Of a stretch of 47,284 nucleotides of DNA, positions 1 through 47,284 are shown one piece after another (the stretch's first letter is position 1; each line of letters starts with the position of its first letter). The DNA comes from a virus. The notes under the pieces are model-generated. The model was not told where the DNA came from. It made no database searches and saw only the letters and a program-made list of their open reading frames with translations. The position numbers were made by a program, and so were the translations under genes. Where the stretch lies: positions 1 through 47,284 of IMG/VR virus record IMGVR_UViG_3300045988_065468; one strand, written 5' to 3'.

Positions 1-99
1 ATGTGAGGAAACAAGAACATATTTTGCTTCTGGAAGGAGATTACAAGATGATACAGGAAAAGGGATATTATTTAGCTTAGGTGGTGAAACAAAAAAAAC
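1..99. repeat. Terminal direct repeat copy 1 (identical to 47186..47284); circular-assembly overlap
   Basis: Base-by-base comparison: atgtgaggaaacaagaac...gtggtgaaacaaaaaaaac occurs at both window ends (99 nt). Confidence 0.9.
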
Positions 100-3176: not shown

Positions 3177-3928
3177 ATAGTGATTACAAGAAAAGGTTTA
3201 TGAACGGTTTTAAAATGTTATGCAACGGTAAATCTCCTTATACAGTATGGAGCGATTGCATGGCTTTATTTGCCATTACATTAGCTAATACAAGCATTTT
3301 ACCATTAGCAAAAGAAGAACACTTTAAAAGCGTATATACAGGGCGAGAAAAGGAATATTTACGGATTATAAACAGCTATGAAAAAAAAGAGCAAAAGTTA
3401 TTTCCGCAAATGTTTGCATTACTTGTGGAAGAACTAGAATTACACCCTAACCAAGATTTATTAGGAAGTTTATTTATGGAATTAAAAATATCTAATAAAC
3501 ACGCAGGGCAATTCTTTACACCGTATAGTGTTTGTGAAGCAATGGCAAATGTTTTGATTGAACGTAAACAATTAGGTAAAACAGTACATAAAAAAGGCTA
3601 TACAAGCATATATGACCCGACTTGTGGTGCAGGAGCAACACTTGTATGTGCAAGTGAGATATGTAAAAGCATGTTTAAAAAATATAACTACCAAAATCAT
3701 ATAATGTTTGTAGGGCAGGACATAGACATAACTTGTGTTCAGATGTGTTATATACAGTTGTCCTTACATGGGTTGTCTGGGTATGTTGTACATGGGAACA
3801 CCTTGACGGAACCAGAAGTAACAGACTTACATAGAATTTGGTTTACACCTATGTATTTTAACAATGTATGGACAATGCGTAGATTGTTTCATGGACAGGA
3901 CATTTTAGGGAGGGAAAAAGTAAAATAA
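3158..3928 (+). CDS. N6-adenine DNA methyltransferase-like protein (HsdM-like) with degenerate catalytic motif IV
   Basis: Motif X-like GQFFTPYSV and motif I IYDPTCGAGATLV are present, followed by FVGQDID. The expected NPPF/Y position reads FTPMYF. The start is 3149 or 3158; SD spacing favours 3158. Confidence 0.6.
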   Translation: MVKTNINSDYKKRFMNGFKMLCNGKSPYTVWSDCMALFAITLANTSILPLAKEEHFKSVYTGREKEYLRIINSYEKKEQKLFPQMFALLVEELELHPNQDLLGSLFMELKISNKHAGQFFTPYSVCEAMANVLIERKQLGKTVHKKGYTSIYDPTCGAGATLVCASEICKSMFKKYNYQNHIMFVGQDIDITCVQMCYIQLSLHGLSGYVVHGNTLTEPEVTDLHRIWFTPMYFNNVWTMRRLFHGQDILGREKVK

Positions 3929-3944
3929 AAAAATAAAAAGAAAG

Positions 3945-5099
3945 TTGGTGTGTAAAGTGAATTTTAAAGAGCAATGGAAGGATATAGAAGGGTATGAGGG
4001 ATTATATGAAATAAGTACATACGGAAATGTAAGGAGTAAAGAAAGAAAAAGTAACAGTGGAAAAATTATAAAAGAAAAGATTTTAAAACAGGAAGTAACA
4101 AAAAATAATAGATGCCTTGTTAAATTGTCAAAAGATGGAAAAACTAAAAAATACCAAGTTCATGTTTTAGTGGCTAAACATTTTATAGACAATCCATATT
4201 TTTACAATGAAGTAAACCATATAGATGAAAACCCATTAAATAATAACGTAAGCAATTTGGAATGGTGTACATGTTGGTATAATAATTGTTGCTCATTTAG
4301 TAAACACGTTTTAAGTGAAAACACATTGGACAAAAATGAAAGAAAGTTCTATGAAAGTGTAAATGCGACAACTTATGATGGATTTAATAAAGGTCATGTT
4401 GGTGCAGTTTGCAGAGGGGAAGAATCACAACATAAAGGGTATGTTTTTAAATATGTAAAAGATGAAAAATACATTATAGGAATTGATGAAAGTTATGCAA
4501 GGTGCGGTATAACATTATTATGTGATAAAGTGATAGTTGAAATGTTTTCCATTAATTATGAAAATTGTTTAAATAACACAGAAAAGAGAAAGGAAATTAA
4601 AAAGGAATTAAACAGAATATGTAAAGAATACAGACTTGATAAAAGAAATTGTGATTGTATAGTAGAAAGAATAAGGTTAAAATCACAAGGAGTATTAAGT
4701 TTAAATTATATACTTGCAACATCGGCATTAGTGTCAACAATAACAGATACATTATACAATTATAAAATAAAAGTATATTCAGTTAATACAAAGAGCTGGA
4801 AGTATGCTATTGTAGGTACAAGCAAACCTTTGGAAAACCCTTATGGAATTAATCCAGAGAAGTATCGTACAATCTTGTATATGCGTGATAAAGGGCTTTT
4901 AAAGCATATAGCTGAGGAATATAAGGGCAGAGGTAAAAAAGGCATTATAAACGTAAAAATGGACGTTATAGAAGGTAATCGAAAAGTAAGGAAGAAAGTG
5001 CCTTGCAAAATTAATGATGATTTAGCTGATAGCTATTGTATTGCAATGTATGGGTACTTACCAAAGTCAAAACAAAAGCTAAAGGAGGAAAAGTTTTGA
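3945..5099 (+). CDS. HNH homing-endonuclease (NUMOD4/HNH_3/IENR-like) fused in frame to a RuvC-like Holliday junction resolvase
   Basis: N-terminal half: WKDIEGYEGLYEISTYGNVRS, HVLVAKHF..VNHIDENPLNNNVSNLEW, YDGFNKGHVGAVCRG..HKGYVF. C-terminal half: IIGIDESYARCGI..CIVERI..INDDLADSYCIAMYG. No in-frame ATG/GTG/TTG lies at the junction. The exact 5' start is uncertain (TTG 3945 or GTG 3957). Confidence 0.65.
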   Translation: MVCKVNFKEQWKDIEGYEGLYEISTYGNVRSKERKSNSGKIIKEKILKQEVTKNNRCLVKLSKDGKTKKYQVHVLVAKHFIDNPYFYNEVNHIDENPLNNNVSNLEWCTCWYNNCCSFSKHVLSENTLDKNERKFYESVNATTYDGFNKGHVGAVCRGEESQHKGYVFKYVKDEKYIIGIDESYARCGITLLCDKVIVEMFSINYENCLNNTEKRKEIKKELNRICKEYRLDKRNCDCIVERIRLKSQGVLSLNYILATSALVSTITDTLYNYKIKVYSVNTKSWKYAIVGTSKPLENPYGINPEKYRTILYMRDKGLLKHIAEEYKGRGKKGIINVKMDVIEGNRKVRKKVPCKINDDLADSYCIAMYGYLPKSKQKLKEEKF

Positions 5100-5873
5100 A
5101 AAAAGTGAAATTAAGAAAAGGTGATTGTATTGAACTTATGAAAGATATTCCCGATGGAAGTATTGATATGATCCTTTGTGATTTACCATATGGAACAACT
5201 GCTTGTAAGTGGGACACTGTTATTTCTTTTGAACCATTATGGGAGCAGTACAACAGAATTATCAAAGACAATGGTGCAATAGTTTTATTTGCTAGTCAAC
5301 CATTCTCATCTGTTTTAGTAAATAGTAATATTAAGAATTTTAGATATGAATGGATATGGGAGAAAGATAAGCCTAGTAACTTTGCATTAGCAAATAAACA
5401 ACCTATGAAATACCATGAAAATGTAATGGTATTTTATAAAAAAACAACCGACTTATAATAAACAAATTACATATGGTCACAAGCCTATGAATGGACAAGC
5501 TAAATATGGAAGAACATATAATGGTTCAGTCCCAAGTTTAGAAGTAGAAGAAAGATATAAAGGTGGTAAAACAACTAGAAATCCTTCTAGTATACAAAAG
5601 TTTAATACACCAAAACACAATTCATCAGATAAAAGTGGTTTACATCCATGTCAGAAACCTTTGGAGGCATGTGAGTATTTTATTAAAACATATACAAATG
5701 AAGGGGAAATTGTTTTGGACAACTGTATGGGGTCTGGTAGCACGGGAGTTGCTTGTTTGAGGACTAATAGAAAATTTATAGGCATTGAATTGGAACAAAA
5801 ATATTATGATATTGCAAAAGAAAGAATAAAAAAAGAAATGGAAATTTTAAAGTTAAAGGAAGAAAAATTTTAG
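5096..5873 (+). pseudogene. Beta-class N4/N6 DNA methyltransferase split by a frame break in an A7 run (5438-5444)
   Basis: Upstream part has motif IV ILCDLPYGTT. Downstream part (track ORF 5487..5873) has HPCQKP and motif I DNCMGSGSTG. Removing one A gives the continuous reading VMVFYKKQPTYNKQITYGHKPMNG. A TTG start at 5096 follows aaggagga. Confidence 0.75.
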
Positions 5874-18092: not shown

Positions 18093-18164
18093 TGCCCTAT
18101 AGTGTAAAGGTTAGCACACAAGAATTTGACTCTTGTAATATTGGTTCGATTCCAATTAGAGTAG
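18093..18164 (+). tRNA. tRNA-Gln (anticodon UUG)
   Basis: Hand-folded cloverleaf. Acceptor tgcccta/tagagta (U1-A72, one C-A mismatch at 4-69), D stem gtgt/gcac, anticodon stem caaga/tcttg with loop atTTGac, T arm attgg-ttcgatt-ccaat, discriminator G. 72 nt, no encoded CCA. Confidence 0.75.
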
Positions 18165-18264: not shown

Positions 18265-18338
18265 GGGTCATTAGTTCAGTTGGTTAGAGCATTCGCCTCA
18301 TAAGCGAATTGTCGTAGGTTCGAACCCTACATGACCCA
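18265..18338 (+). tRNA. tRNA with CAU anticodon (elongator Met or lysidine-modified Ile2)
   Basis: Perfect cloverleaf. Acceptor gggtcat/atgaccc, D arm gttc-agttggtta-gagc, anticodon stem ttcgc/gcgaa with loop ctCATaa, T arm gtagg-ttcgaac-cctac. It lacks initiator hallmarks. Confidence 0.9.
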
Positions 18339-18752: not shown

Positions 18753-18782
18753 TTGACGAACAATAATTGAATATGGTATAAT
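18753..18782 (+). promoter_or_regulatory. SigA-type promoter (TTGACG-N18-TATAAT, TGn) upstream of terL
   Basis: ccTTGACGaacaataattgaatatggTATAATatg. Confidence 0.55.
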
Positions 18783-18862: not shown

Positions 18863-19915
18863 ATGGATGTAAACATTGAGGTGTCTAACAGATTTGCTTC
18901 TTTTCTAACCGATTGGGACTATGAACAATATCTGTTGTTGGGTGGATATGGTAGTGGTAAAAGCTATCATGCAGCATTGAAGATTATATTAAAACTTCTG
19001 GAAGAAAAAAGAACAGCACTTGTAGTAAGACAAGTAAGAGAAACAATCAAAGAATCATGTTTCGCACTGTTTAAAGAAATCCTTGAAAAGATGGGGTTGT
19101 TATCAGACGAAGCAGTGAGATTTAACAATAGACCGAAGGGTGGAAAGGTTGTTGCAATTTCTAGCCCACTAGAAATCCGTTTTCCGAATGGTTCAAGAAT
19201 CATATTCCGAGGAATGGATAATACGGAGAAAATCAAGTCCATTCATGGTGTCAGCATTGTTTGGATGGAAGAGTGTAGCGAAATCCGTTATGAAGCATAT
19301 ACCGAGTTGCTAGGGCGTATCAGAGAGCCTAAAGTGACGTTGCATTTTATAATGACAACAAACCCAGTTGGTAAGGAAAACTGGGTATACAATACCTTTT
19401 TTGTGCATACGGATGAAAAGGGGAAAGAAAAAGTAATACAGAACCCAGAGGAATTTTACAGACGTAGAACATTGGTGAACAAAAAGAATGGCGTATATTA
19501 TCATCATAGTTTACCAAATGATAACCCATTTTTGCCAGCGTCATACATTAAGCGTTTGGATAGTTTGAAACAAACAGACAAACAGTTGTGGGTTGTTGCA
19601 AGATGGGGAAGGTTTGGTGCAAATGGAACAAGAGTATTACCAAACTTTATTATTGCAAAGCACAGTAAGGAGTTCAAGAACAAAGTGAACAGCATATCAG
19701 CACAATATCATTTCTTTGGACTTGACTTTGGTTTTGAAGAGAGTTACAATGCACTTATCAGTTGTTGTGTGGATGATGCAAACAAAGTGCTGTACATTTA
19801 TGATGAAGTGTACATGAATCAGATAACAGATGATAGATTCTCACAGAGACAAGATGTTCGTGCAGTAGCAGAACGTGCAGGAAGGTGTGAAAAACCAATC
19901 TGTGCAGACAGTGCT
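18863..19915 (+). CDS. terL: Terminase large subunit, exon 1
   Basis: Walker A is LLLGGYGSGKSYHAA, Walker B-like is VSIVWMEECSE, nuclease motif is FGLDFGFEESYNALI. Homology-like sequence ends at ...PICADSA. The track ORF then runs into unrelated residues (KLLVLNHVKYWEALRALNTVA*). Confidence 0.85.
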
Positions 19916-20754
19916 AAACTTTTGGTACTTAACCATGTTAAATACTGGGAAGCCCTTAGAGCCTTAAATACCGTAGCGTGATAATTTTAAGGATTGGGTA
20001 ATCAGTAGTAGTTTAAAGTAAACGGAGGATTTTGATGTGAAAGTGAAACAAATAAATAAAATAAAAGGGTTTGAACATATAAACGATGGATATTATGTTT
20101 CTTATGATGGAAGAGTATTTTCTCTCAGAACAAACGGAGGAAAGGTTGTAGATGTATCTCATAGAAAAGAGTTAAAGCAGTATGAGAAAACAGGTGGTTA
20201 TTTGAATGTTGCTCTTACAACAAAACATAACAAAGTAAATTATGTTAGAGTAAACAGATTAGTCGCAAAGGCTTTTGTAAAAGGAGAAACATCAAAAAGA
20301 AAATATGTTAATCATGAAGACGAAAATAGAAAAAATAATAATGCAGATAATTTGTGTTGGGTAACTCCAAAGGAAAATAATGATTGGAGTTTATCAAAGA
20401 AAGTTTATATGTATGATAGCAACGGGTATTTTATAAAAAGTTATATCTCTACAAGAGAAGCATCTTATGATGGGTTTAATAAATCACATGTTGCAAATGT
20501 ATGTAGAGGAATTGAAAGACAACATAAAGGATATTTGTTCTCATATCAAAAACTAACGAAAGAACAAGCTATTCAACGACTATCGAAAACACATTATGTT
20601 AGATATCCAAAATGTAATGGAAGTGAGTAGAGTACACACAAGCGTGTGGAAAAGCATGGAGCAGAAATGCTAAGATATAGTCTAAACTTATATGAAAGTA
20701 TAAGCAGTTCATAAGAGAACGTGTATAGAGTAGCGATCTATGCAGAATCTATTG
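19916..20754 (+). mobile_element. Group I self-splicing intron (839 nt) carrying an HNH homing endonuclease ORF
   Basis: The exon ends in U. P1 pairs agtgcU (19910-15) with Ggtact (19924-29), placing a U-G wobble at the splice site. The last intron nt is G (20754). gctaagatatagtct (20678-20692) contains the AAGAUAUAGUC J8/7-P7 core string. Joining the exons restores ADSA-EPKTIQ in frame. Confidence 0.8.
20037..20630 (+). CDS. Intron-encoded HNH homing endonuclease (HNH_3 plus IENR/NUMOD-like)
   Basis: GTG follows ggagg. YYVSYDGRVFS, RVNRLVAKAF..VNHEDENRKNNNADNLCW, YDGFNKSHVANVCRG..HKGYLFSY. Same architecture as the N-terminal half of ORF 3945..5099. Confidence 0.8.
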   Translation: MKVKQINKIKGFEHINDGYYVSYDGRVFSLRTNGGKVVDVSHRKELKQYEKTGGYLNVALTTKHNKVNYVRVNRLVAKAFVKGETSKRKYVNHEDENRKNNNADNLCWVTPKENNDWSLSKKVYMYDSNGYFIKSYISTREASYDGFNKSHVANVCRGIERQHKGYLFSYQKLTKEQAIQRLSKTHYVRYPKCNGSE

Positions 20755-21060
20755 GAACCTAAAACAATTCAGTTTTACAGACAGCAAGGATACAACATGT
20801 ATGGTGCGAAAAAGTACATTGGAAGTCGATTACAAAACACAAAGAAGATGAAACGATTTAACAAGATAGTTTGTTCCCCTAGATGTAAGAACACAATCAG
20901 AGAGTTGAAAGACCTTACATATAAGAAGGATTTGAGAGGCAATGCAATTTATGATGAATTTAACATTGACCCACATACATTCTCTGCGTTATGGTATGCG
21001 TTGGACACATACACAGTAGCAGATGTGAAGGAAATTAAAACAAACAGTAAAGCAGGATAA
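20755..21060 (+). CDS. terL: Terminase large subunit, exon 2
   Basis: [55 protein letters not shown] matches the TerL C-terminal nuclease region pattern (aDsaEP..I..l...G..v..akK ... c.n...E...Y ... DalRYal). Confidence 0.85.
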
Positions 21061-21338
21061 TGTTTCATGTGAAACGTGGGAAGGAGAACAGAGAGAGAAT
21101 GAACACATTGAGAAGTAAAACAAAGGAAGTAAAGAACATCAGAGATTTACAGAAACAGAGTTTGGAGAAATCAACAGATGATTACATGGTGGGGTTATAT
21201 AATGGGTTAGAGATGGCAACAGCGATTCTGGAAGGAAGAGAGCCAGAGTTCCTAACCTGTGTAAAAGAACCACCAGTGATAGAGAATGAAGAAGAACAGG
21301 CAGGACGAACAGTAGCAAATGGGATTCGTAGGAGGTAA
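21060..21338 (+). CDS. Hypothetical protein (92 aa)
   Basis: TAATG overlaps the terL stop. An alternative ATG lies at 21102. Confidence 0.45.
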   Translation: MFHVKRGKENRERMNTLRSKTKEVKNIRDLQKQSLEKSTDDYMVGLYNGLEMATAILEGREPEFLTCVKEPPVIENEEEQAGRTVANGIRRR

Positions 21339-21344
21339 GAAGAT

Positions 21345-21659
21345 GTGCAAGAAATATTGCTAGATACATACACAATAGCATTGCCCATCATACTTGGCTA
21401 TATAGTCTGGTTATTAAAACAAACAAACAGAAAGAGGGATGCAAACACAAGAGGAACAATGTTATTGTTAAGGGTTCAATTAATAGAATACCATGACAAG
21501 TATTGTGCTATGGGAATCATGCCATCGTATGTCTACCAAAATTTTTGTGAAATGTTTGAAGCATACAGAGCGTTGGGTGGGAATGGAATGATTTTAAAGA
21601 TGAAAAAGGAAGTCGACGAATTGGAAATAAGAAAGAAAGGATATGAACACGATGTTTAA
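21345..21659 (+). CDS. Membrane protein next to the holin (possible lysis accessory)
   Basis: GTG start. One N-terminal TM segment (YTIALPIILGYIVWLL) followed by a soluble domain. Confidence 0.45.
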   Translation: MQEILLDTYTIALPIILGYIVWLLKQTNRKRDANTRGTMLLLRVQLIEYHDKYCAMGIMPSYVYQNFCEMFEAYRALGGNGMILKMKKEVDELEIRKKGYEHDV

Positions 21660-21879
21660 AAACAATGTATTTAATGTATCAGTAGATACAAAAAAGTGGT
21701 TGAAGAAAGCGGGAGTAAGAGCAGTTAAAACAATGGCACAGACTTTTGTTGCAACAGTTGGAACGGCTACTGTTATGGGTGCAGTAAATTGGAAGATGGT
21801 ACTTTCTGCTTCTGTTTTGGCTGGTGTTCTTTCTGTTGCAACAAGTATTGCAGGTATTCCAGAAGTAGAAGCAGAGTAA
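21643..21879 (+). CDS. Holin (phi LC3 / Phage_holin_1-like)
   Basis: 78 aa. WLKKAGVRAVKTMAQTFVATVGTATVMGAVNWKMVLSASVLAGVLSVATSIAGIPE gives two TM segments and the r.lrTf.Qt pattern. It lies immediately upstream of the amidase. Confidence 0.65.
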   Translation: MNTMFKNNVFNVSVDTKKWLKKAGVRAVKTMAQTFVATVGTATVMGAVNWKMVLSASVLAGVLSVATSIAGIPEVEAE

Positions 21880-21900
21880 GATAAGAAAGGAGAACAGAGA

Positions 21901-22020
21901 ATGAATCCAAACGAAACAAATAGTATTGCAGGTATTGTACTAGAAGAATGCGAAACAATGAATGAAGAAACAATGAAAGAATTAAGCAATGGAAAGGGAG
22001 AGGGTGAAGATAATGAGTAA
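21901..22020 (+). CDS. Small acidic ORF (39 aa) between holin and endolysin
   Basis: Not in the track. ATG follows aaaggagaac. Reads MNPNETNSIAGIVLEECETMNEETMKELSNGKGEGEDNE and overlaps the endolysin start. Confidence 0.35.
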   Translation: MNPNETNSIAGIVLEECETMNEETMKELSNGKGEGEDNE

Positions 22021-22939
22021 TAGTAAATTAGTAAATCATATTCATATTTCACCGAACAGAACAAGTCCAAGGCGAAACAGAATTGATAGAATCACAATAC
22101 ATCACATGGCAGGAAACCTTACCGTTGAGACTTGTGGTAATGTATTCGCACCTAGAGGACGACAAGCATCATCCAATTATGGTATTGGTTCGGATGGAAG
22201 AGTAGGAATGTATGTGGAAGAAAAAGATAGAGCGTGGACTTCATCGTCTGGTGCGAACGACCACAGAGCAGTTACAATTGAAGTCGCAGACAATGTAATT
22301 GGAAATGGTTGGGGGTGTAGTAATGCCGCAATGAGCAAGTTAATTCTTTTATGTGCTGACATCTGTAGAAGAAATGGTATTAATCGCCTTACATACACAG
22401 GAAACACAAATGGAAATCTTACTTTGCACAAATGGTTTGCGGCTACAGATTGTCCGGGTGCATTCCTCGAAAGGCTGATGCCAACAATTGCAAATGAAGT
22501 TAATCATTTGTTAGTAAGTGGTGCAACAACATATACATGGAAAGGCGCAACAGCAACAATTCCAAGCGGCAGACCAACAAAGCCACAGCCTTCAAAAACA
22601 AATGCAATTGCAGTAGATGGTAGTTGGGGAATTGCAACAACAAGGAAAGCACAACAAGTATTTGGAACAATCCAAGATGGAGTTATCAGTAATCAGCCAA
22701 TATACAATAAGCAGTTTTTACCGAATGCTTACACAGGTAGTTGGCAATTCAAACAGAATGGCATTAAAGCAGGTTCACAGTTGATTAAAGCAATTCAAGT
22801 GCGTATTGGTGTAAGTCACGATGGTTGGTTTGGTAAACAGTCCGTAATGGCGTTACAGCGTTTCTTAGGGGTATCACAAGATGGTAGCATGGGTGGTATC
22901 ACTGTTAGGGCGTTTCAGCGTTGGTTGAACAAACAATAA
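22013..22939 (+). CDS. Endolysin: N-acetylmuramoyl-L-alanine amidase (Amidase_2/PGRP) with C-terminal PG_binding_1-like repeats
   Basis: ITIHHMAG, SSNYGIGSDGRVGMYVEEKDRAWTS, NDHRAVTIEV. The C-terminus has three repeats: VDGSWGIATTRKAQQVFG, HDGWFGKQSVMALQRFLG, QDGSMGGITVRAFQRWL. Confidence 0.85.
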   Translation: MSNSKLVNHIHISPNRTSPRRNRIDRITIHHMAGNLTVETCGNVFAPRGRQASSNYGIGSDGRVGMYVEEKDRAWTSSSGANDHRAVTIEVADNVIGNGWGCSNAAMSKLILLCADICRRNGINRLTYTGNTNGNLTLHKWFAATDCPGAFLERLMPTIANEVNHLLVSGATTYTWKGATATIPSGRPTKPQPSKTNAIAVDGSWGIATTRKAQQVFGTIQDGVISNQPIYNKQFLPNAYTGSWQFKQNGIKAGSQLIKAIQVRIGVSHDGWFGKQSVMALQRFLGVSQDGSMGGITVRAFQRWLNKQ

Positions 22940-47079: not shown

Positions 47080-47265
47080 ATGAATTTATTGGAACATTAT
47101 GTAACAAACATCACAAGGGAACATGAAACAGATTATCAAGGGGTAAAGATGTATGAGTTGATATGTGACATTAACTGCTATGGGAATGTGAGGAAACAAG
47201 AACATATTTTGCTTCTGGAAGGAGATTACAAGATGATACAGGAAAAGGGATATTATTTAGCTTAG
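47080..47265 (+). CDS. Hypothetical protein (61 aa)
   Basis: Track ORF. Its 3' end lies in the terminal repeat and is duplicated at 1..80. Confidence 0.5.
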   Translation: MNLLEHYVTNITREHETDYQGVKMYELICDINCYGNVRKQEHILLLEGDYKMIQEKGYYLA

Positions 47266-47284
47266 GTGGTGAAACAAAAAAAAC
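47186..47284. repeat. Terminal direct repeat copy 2 (identical to 1..99)
   Basis: Base-by-base identity with the window start. Confidence 0.9.

Follow-up and report, generated by a model that had tools for sequence, protein, structure and literature searches.

The sequence considered here is the virus record IMGVR_UViG_3300045988_065468 of IMG/VR, analysed over its whole length of 47,284 nucleotides (nt) and called the window below. Its terL gene, which encodes the large terminase subunit (TerL), lies in two segments. Exon 1 (18863..19915; this and all other features described are on the plus strand) carries codons 1-351, ends with ...C-A-D-S-A and has U as its last base; exon 2 (20755..21060) carries codons 352-452 and the stop codon and starts with E-P-K-T-I. 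Both exons were delimited by Pfam matches and by colinearity with uninterrupted TerLs. The 839 nt between them (19916..20754) contain an open reading frame (ORF) for a 197-aa protein (20037..20630) similar to the HNH homing endonuclease I-HmuI. As argued below, terL is split by a group I intron with an HNH homing endonuclease gene, a well-supported case of a familiar type of phage element.

The division of the gene is apparent at the protein level. The ORF at 18863-19981 matches Pfam family Terminase_3 (E = 6e-59) and then merely positions 1-43 of Terminase_3C, and the ORF at 20740-21060 matches positions 56-154 of Terminase_3C. The preliminary description of this DNA, made from the sequence alone, had noticed just this, TerL similarity stopping after exon 1 and resuming in the second ORF. 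When 19915 is joined to 20755, the resulting 452-aa TerL gives a single unbroken Terminase_3C match (positions 1-154 of 155, 126 bits, vs 33.8 and 86.8 bits for the unjoined pieces) together with a Terminase_3 match (E = 1e-58), so that both domains are found in one polypeptide only after the in-silico join. Aligned with the TerLs of Anoxybacillus phage A403 and Clostridium phage phiCp-D, both encoded without interruption, the joined protein needs no gap where the exons meet, and the residues D-S-A-E-P-K-T-I across the join are invariant. We also shifted the junction: ADSAEP was restored by shifts 0 and -1 only, and shift 0 alone combines U at position -1, a terminal G and the restored motif. 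Since no other shift has all these properties, the split and the in-frame join are real and essentially unique; the claim that joining 19915 to 20755 keeps the frame and remakes ADSAEP is upheld by the continuous Terminase_3C match and the gapless alignment. The expected ligated-exon junction (19915/20755) reads ...GACAGUGCU followed by GAACCUAAA, with GCU joined to GAA.

The nuclease domain of this TerL aligns to the SPP1 G2P nuclease structure 2WBN at three motifs (GLDFGF/GLDFGY, CADSAEP/IADSSEP and IDPHTFS/DNHTID). The Asp of ADSAEP aligns with 2WBN chain residue 111, and the numbering offset that places the first motif Asp at 266 makes it D321; we take D321 of SPP1 to be a metal-binding catalytic residue. 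The insertion is located between codons 351 and 352, two codons downstream of this Asp in the RNase-H-like nuclease domain. Positions beside the catalytic motifs of conserved genes are typical targets of homing endonucleases (PMC3984707).

The joined TerL, used to scan viral contigs, yielded 63 loci and was then mapped onto each of them. About 45 loci encode residues 1-452 without interruption; the closest of these (L059) is 99% identical in amino acids, with 52 of 1359 nt differing, and 14 further loci are 92-96% identical. An insertion of 835-846 nt after the identical codon was found in 18 loci (13 distinct sequences of about five lineages), as well as in phages CS266P1-4 and Dulem virus 36 of GenBank. 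Thus the search for intron-less terL in related phages proposed earlier was successful, and the 839-nt insert at 19916-20754 is borne out by the uninterrupted alleles as well as by the Pfam split. The preliminary description had also envisaged relatives in which TerL is naturally made as two polypeptides, and the many uninterrupted close alleles contradict this. Exon 1 ends in GCU in every interrupted allele. The D-S-A codons are GAY AGT GCT in the window and its intron-bearing relatives vs GAY TCA GCA in close intron-less alleles (TCG GCA in L066).

This pattern of presence and absence points to an optional mobile insertion and not to an ancestrally split gene. Divergence of the intron and divergence of the exons are discordant: between L051 and the window, identity is 66.5% in exon 1 (nt) and 97.9% in the intron; L092, L093 and L099 have 88-91% and 97-98%, respectively; for L001 the figures are 87% (exon 1) and 80% (intron). 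Such discordance indicates horizontal mobility, and the earlier view of a mobile element agrees with both the site polymorphism and the divergence data. Apart from the insertion, the nearest relative of the window terL is the intron-less L059, and the mismatches between the two are concentrated around the junction (within ±50 nt, 10 of 100 positions; elsewhere, 42 of 1259; Fisher p = 0.003). Clustering of this kind is the expected trace of co-conversion of flanking exon sequence during homing and, like the discordance, is a signature of past transfer.

At the RNA level, the 5' splice site lies in a P1 helix (19910..19929) formed by the exon bases AGUGCU (19910-15) and the guide GGUACU (19924-29), with a loop at 19916-23 and a wobble pair, U19915·G19924, at the splice site. 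Because MAFFT places the guide region of the second lineage out of register, P1 was assessed on a separate short alignment. In this alignment of seven sequences pairing is complete in all cells and the U·G is invariant (7/7). The second lineage has the exon sequence GCGGCU and the guide GGUCGC; three of the six pairs are changed on both sides (AGU to GCG and ACU to CGC). The minimum free energy (MFE) fold of the window sequence recovers P1 as well. At the other end, the terminal guanosine (omega-G, 20754) directly precedes the 3' splice site and is present in 11 of 13 distinct intron copies. The three hallmarks named in the preliminary description, an upstream exon ending in U (U19915), a P1 with U·G wobble at 19910-15/19924-29 and a G as the final intron nucleotide (G20754), therefore all held.

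The last base of the intron is A in L110 and L111, two independent contigs of the second lineage (...AUAAAUA/GAACC; position 4394 in L110). A terminal A should impair the second step of splicing. No alternative frame-keeping junction was apparent in either contig.

The fold of the core was traced from the three most divergent copies and then tested on all 13 distinct copies. It comprises 12 helices with 70 pairs, including the P3/P7 pseudoknot, and standard pairs are formed in 98% of cells of the full-length alignment. P3 (19933-38, CCAUGU, with 20654-59, GCAUGG) is paired in all cells, with five of six pairs changed on both sides. The P4-P5-P5a domain (19943..20007) takes exactly the same structure in MFE and centroid folds: P4 (19943-48/20002-07) is nearly invariant, P5 (19952-55/19996-99) has two of four pairs changed on both sides and P5a (19962-68/19986-92) six of seven; a few ‘unpaired’ P5a cells are artefacts, as MAFFT mis-registers P5a of L002. 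P6 (20008-14, GUAGUUU, with 20566-72, AAGCUAU) pairs in all cells, shows one compensatory change of G-C to A-U and one change of U·G to C-G, and holds the endonuclease ORF in its loop. P7 (20578-83, GACUAU, with 20677-82, AUAGUC) forms the pseudoknot with P3 and is invariant in all copies. Its 5' strand coincides in large part with the R-element-like sequence CAACGACUA at 20574-82, in agreement with the Rfam consensus GUUCAaAGACUA as aligned in a homologous intron, that of the lysin gene of Staphylococcus phage IME1367_01 (L124).

Between the 5' strand of P7 and the 3' strand of P3 there are two hairpins. P7.1 (20593-99, AUUAUGU, with 20612-18, AUGUAAU) pairs in all cells and is recovered by MFE folding; four of its seven pairs vary on one side only, in a wobble-compatible way. 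P7.2 (20635-39/20644-48, CACAC-AAGC-GUGUG) also pairs in all cells and is GGAAC/GUUCC in lineage 2. P8 (20660-63/20668-71, AGCA-GAAA-UGCU) has two of four pairs changed on both sides and a conserved GNRA loop. It is followed by J8/7 and the 3' strand of P7, the S element (20672..20682), whose sequence AAGAUAUAGUC has its sole exact match in the window here and corresponds to RF00028 positions 221-231. The 3' part of the intron folds into P9 (20687-93/20698-704, GAAA loop), P9.1 (20707-10/20717-20, invariant) and P9.2 (20723-29/20737-43, four of seven pairs changed on both sides). The same three hairpins, and no others, make up the MFE fold of this region (z = -3.6). From the window sequence alone MFE folding finds P1, P4-P5-P5a, P7.1, P7.2 and P9-P9.1-P9.2; thermodynamically, P4-P6 and P7.1 are modestly supported (z about -1.1 to -1.4). 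There is no P2 because UAA alone separates P1 from P3.

Some features of the preliminary description had to be revised at this point. Its P8 hairpin (gcat..atgc) did not stand, as covariation places gcat in the 3' strand of P3 (GCAUGG) and P8 in AGCA-GAAA-UGCU at 20660-71. The J8/7-P7 core motif that it recognized, gcTAAGATATAGTCt, is present, but at 20669-20683 instead of 20678-92. The sequence AAGATATAGTC occurs exactly once on this strand and was aligned by Rfam to RF00028 positions 221-251. Three other candidate helices were rejected: a P2 hairpin UUAAC-CAU-GUUAA, at odds with the covariation, its ‘loop’ being the 5' strand of P3; a UCCA/UGGA hairpin at 20609-24, disrupted in lineage 2; and a P7 formed as AGUUUA/UAAACU, broken in L002.

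Changes on both sides of a pair were observed in 27 pairs, compared with 14.9±2.2 in column shuffles (none of 500 shuffles reached 27). When the 3' partners were slid by 1-3 columns as a control, only 1-6 pairs had changes on both sides. Within the covariation evidence we place more trust in the slide control and in how many different types of compensatory pair occur. The carriers of covariation are P3 (5/6), P5a (6/7), P7.2 (3/5), P8 (2/4), P9 (4/7) and P9.2 (4/7). Location of P7.1/P7.2 between the 5' strand of P7 and the 3' strand of P3 reportedly marks class IA (Michel & Westhof, 1990), the usual class of phage introns. On these elements of the sequence the intron may be described as class IA-like. 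P7.1/P7.2 are listed among the features by which group I introns are classified (PMC3984707).

The gathering score of the Rfam model RF00028 (Intron_gpI) is 50 bits. A permissive scan (971-nt search) found a partial match to this model at 20672-20702 (positions 221-251, 21.4 bits, E = 0.0055) spanning J8/7, the 3' strand of P7 and P9. The covariance-model check suggested earlier was thus positive for a part of the intron, with a score below the gathering score; the likely reason is that the core is interrupted by ~550 nt of ORF between its halves.

Homology to a better scoring intron was more informative. A blastn search with the 189-nt 3' core matched 300 phage records, among them Lactococcus phages r1t and Tuc2009, Twort-like staphylococcal phages, the terL gene of Bacillus phage AR9, the ribonucleotide reductase gene of Brochothrix phage A9 and a feature of Clostridium phage D-1873 annotated as ‘Group I catalytic intron’. 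The L124 intron matches RF00028 over its full length (97.9 bits, E = 6e-25), and in an alignment of 281 columns the window intron with its ORF deleted has 64.8% identity to it; CAACGACUAUCGAAAACAC, GGAAGUGAGUAGAGUAC and AGCAGUUCAUAAGAGAACGU are among the blocks that agree completely. Long identical blocks extend through J6/7-P7-P7.1-P7.2 and through P9.1-P9.2, and of the ribozyme relatives found with a full RF00028 score L124 is the closest; it has relatives of its own in Twort-like, r1t and Tuc2009 phages. It differs from the window intron in its host gene (an amidase), in having the ORF upstream of the core and not in the P6 loop, and in P5a and P6. Covariation and homology to this Rfam-validated intron together support the group I identity of the insert.

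The flanks of the L124 intron (~744, ~1688) seem to read ...ACAGTGCT upstream and GAACAAAA downstream (AGTGCT/GAAC), compared with ...ACAGTGCT and GAACCTAA in the window, and the genes are unrelated. Similarity of these sequences hints at related introns reusing the same guide-sequence target. A search of viral contigs with a 16-mer of the core gave 54 matches; the intron was found only in the terL relatives and the other matches look like chance. Rfam detected no intron at the relatives' loci (35-kb search).

The intron ORF (20037..20630) starts with GTG, replaced by ATG in most relatives, and is preceded by the ribosome-binding site GGAGG (20024..20028, 8 nt before the start), which is kept in 12 of 13 copies (GAAGG in L092). 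The protein matches Pfam HNH_3 with 29.2 bits (cut-off 24.8), phrog_59 ‘HNH endonuclease’ (E = 1.5e-26) and I-HmuI itself (PDB 1U3E, E = 9e-10, in two stretches, with similarity ending near residue 171); matches to NUMOD4 and to the I-HmuI NUMOD-like domain are weak and below cut-offs. It contains the HNH motif VNHEDENRKNNNADNL and is intact, with 195-197 aa, in all 13 copies. The assignment to HNH endonucleases made in the preliminary description is supported by the first three matches; by its sequence the protein is an I-HmuI-like HNH endonuclease, with a predicted homing activity on intron-less terL. The same description put the ORF in a peripheral loop, and this is correct in part: the ORF is inside the P6 loop, but its last 21 codons (20566-20630) traverse P6', J6/7, the 5' strand of P7 and P7.1 up to the first stop. 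An ORF overlapping the ribozyme core is a situation described for other introns (PMC3984707). In a check against consensus promoters no separate promoter for the ORF stood out.

A second HNH gene is present elsewhere in the window. The 384-aa ORF at 3945-5099 combines an I-HmuI-like HNH (NUMOD4 + HNH_3) and a RuvC-like Holliday-junction resolvase (phrog_159) in an in-frame fusion; the HNH part has 41% amino acid identity to the intron endonuclease. A methylase intron around this gene was considered and ruled out, as the upstream ORF is complete, with a match to phrog_5696 over its whole length.

Expression of terL can be pictured as follows, on the model of characterised group I introns. Transcription would begin at a sigma-70-like promoter (18753..18782) with TTGACG, an 18-nt spacer and a TG-extended TATAAT, 11 of 12 consensus positions being present; judged by this sequence, the site could act as a strong promoter of terL. 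The intron RNA would fold, P1 arising from pairing of the guide GGUACU with AGUGCU, the final six bases of the exon. An exogenous guanosine, held by P7, would attack after U19915, and the freed exon 1 would in turn attack after G20754, joining GCU to GAA in the messenger RNA for the 452-aa TerL. The HNH enzyme presumably nicks or cuts intron-less terL of co-infecting relatives, and repair would then transfer the intron together with part of the adjoining exons (homing with co-conversion).

We regard it as very probable that 19916-20754 is a spliced group I intron in terL. Our confidence is somewhat lower that it splices without help, catalysis by the intron being expected from the analogy just described. 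That splicing is obligatory for packaging and virion production is a reasonable inference.

Several observations weigh against a spliced, self-sufficient intron. At the gathering threshold Rfam reported only two transfer RNAs (tRNAs) and no Intron_gpI in the whole window, and the 5' half taken alone (19900-20036) gave no RF00028 match. P10 would have at most 3 bp (UUU with GAA). Relatedness of the 13 copies makes the shuffle statistics overstate independence, and covariation is silent on P7, P9.1 and most of P4, which are invariant. Some of the conservation in the part of the core overlapped by the ORF could reflect coding constraint; as a counterpoint, the same bases are conserved in L124, where they lie in no annotated coding sequence. 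Finally, some phage terL introns do not self-splice in vitro and splice only in vivo (PMC11878797).

The last point leads to a variant of the same reading, in which a genuine group I intron needs a host or phage protein cofactor, or a certain time of infection, for its splicing and would so act as a delay or switch on TerL instead of being a neutral passenger. Some Bastillevirinae introns that splice in vivo only, including the TerL intron of phiAGATE, which splices late in the cycle, offer a precedent (PMC11878797). In the window the helices of the core are short and its sequence is rich in A and T, and the z values of P4-P6 and P7.1 given above are modest; moreover, the ORF overlaps the core, so that translation and folding could compete, as discussed in PMC3984707. 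None of our observations counts against this variant, which we find credible enough to mention and, on balance, rather doubtful.

Another possibility is that the intron has decayed and is dead for splicing, which would leave terL broken and mean that the window represents either a phage that is defective or an assembled variant that is not viable. Defective-looking variants do exist in the population, as L110 and L111 have A for the terminal G. In the window, on the other hand, all core helices, the U·G pair, the omega-G and the ORF are intact and the genome is complete and closed; compensatory maintenance of pairing across lineages also indicates ongoing selection on the RNA. A dead intron is therefore very improbable.

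We think it still harder to believe that a free-standing HNH gene has split terL and that two TerL polypeptides assemble with no RNA splicing. Phage genes split by homing endonucleases and assembling from separate polypeptides have been reported in some cases, the GenBank relatives are annotated with three separate CDSs, an ATG at 20740 opens an ORF covering exon 2, and the second I-HmuI-like gene of the window is outside any intron. Against this scenario, the ORF is flanked by ~290 nt of non-coding sequence with a conserved, covarying group I fold, whose guide covaries with the exon and whose core is homologous to the Rfam-validated L124 intron; there is no Shine-Dalgarno sequence before the ATG at 20740; and the break lies inside the nuclease fold, two codons after the motif Asp. 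An intein is ruled out by the stop codons and the separate ORF, and a group II intron finds no support, as the core fits the group I model and no reverse-transcriptase domain was detected in the ORF (domain V was not searched for).

Preference for a spliced group I intron is in line with known systems. Terminase genes with group I introns and embedded homing endonucleases occur in Lactobacillus phage LL-H (Mikkonen & Alatossava 1995) and, with two such introns, in Bacillus phage Moonbeam (PMC4299906). Among Bastillevirinae, 5 of 52 terL genes have group I introns, with splicing shown experimentally in vitro and in vivo (PMC11878797), and terminases are among the typical targets of phage introns (PMC3984707). 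These precedents make terL group I introns an already known class. The introns of LL-H, Moonbeam, SIOphi and phiAGATE resemble that of the window in being group I introns in terL, often with an HNH gene (PMC4299906, PMC11878797); some known terL genes hold two or three introns, and the window's relatives likewise have a second terL insertion site. The phages themselves are different, as those described here have genomes of ~47 kb, a TerL of the Terminase_3/PBSX type and gut Clostridia-like hosts. The blastn match of the 3' core to AR9 terL links the ribozyme to another phage terL.

The intron of the SPO1 DNA polymerase gene, which encodes I-HmuI, is comparable in its I-HmuI-like HNH with NUMOD-type modules and in its location in an essential gene of DNA metabolism; the target gene is different and protein similarity to the window ORF is low and confined to two stretches. 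In the classical IA2 introns of T4 (td, nrdB and sunY), P7.1/P7.2 are found between P7 and P3' and the endonuclease ORF is looped out from a peripheral helix. The window intron has this IA architecture in common with them, whereas the T4 introns encode GIY-YIG or other endonucleases.

What is new here is the gut-phage lineage related to CS266P1-4, a structure backed by covariation and a well-sampled set of intron-plus and intron-minus alleles. In GenBank entries OP172775-OP172778 and PP511521 (L001, L002) the exons and the intron ORF are annotated as three unrelated coding sequences (CDSs), labelled ‘terminase large subunit’, ‘DNA endonuclease I-HmuI’ and ‘hypothetical protein’ or a second ‘terminase’, and no intron is given. 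With the intron spliced, the correct product in the window phage, Clostridium phages CS266P1-4 and Dulem virus 36 would be one 452-aa TerL. ORF-bearing introns of this type are missed by gene callers and by Rfam at default thresholds. A population with two intron lineages, covarying guides and a second site is well suited for studies of homing, co-conversion and target-site recoding in gut phages; understanding of how group I introns function is left unchanged by this element.

The second terL insertion is ~950 nt long, follows codon 427 (HTF/SAL, near another nuclease motif) and has its own I-HmuI-like ORF. It was found in L001 (~3641-4575) and also in L073, L090, L091, L094-L096, L101, L103, L106, L107, L110, L111 and L118. 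L092 (~4623-4856) and L025 have an ORF-less form of ~235 nt at this site with the R-like sequence CAGAGACUA and the S-like sequence AAUAGAUAGUCC, and P7 seems to covary between the ORF-bearing and the ORF-less forms. Rfam gave no intron match for L001 3600-4640 or L092 4590-4900. The insertion after codon 427 is probably a second group I intron; in the window this site is empty (between 20982 and 20983).

All sampled close intron-less alleles (92-99% aa) have four synonymous differences in the six bases adjoining the first insertion site (five in L066). At this site the intron-less L059 reads TCAGCA/GAACC and the intron-less L085 AGTGCT/GAACC. It is conceivable, if unlikely, that the intron with its endonuclease is a weapon and marker among competing gut phages and not a neutral parasite. 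Recoded flanks and the intron at the second site could then reflect an arms race between cleavage of rival terL by the endonuclease and recoding of its target, a suggestion that we offer as speculative and equally unlikely. If true, the intron status of terL would decide the outcome of mixed infections.

The first 99 bases of the window (1-99) are repeated exactly at 47186-47284, which indicates a complete genome, circular or terminally redundant, with ~47,185 unique bases and 36% G+C. Just upstream of terL Rfam identified two tRNA genes (18093-18164 and 18265-18338), with anticodon loops read as UUG and CAU from the alignment; tRNAs are located upstream of terL in L073, L106 and L110 too. Downstream of terL (21060-22939) there are small ORFs of unknown function, an r1t-type holin gene (21643-21879) and an Amidase_2 endolysin gene (21989-22939). 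The terL gene of the window is not followed by a portal gene, whereas in A403 and phiCp-D the portal gene comes directly after terL.

An N6/N4 DNA methyltransferase gene at 5036-5873 is split as well: 5036-5458 matches profile positions 1-108 and 5487-5873 matches positions 136-221. This split is a frameshift beside a run of seven A near 5440, which could be due to a sequencing error, a pseudogene or programmed frameshifting.

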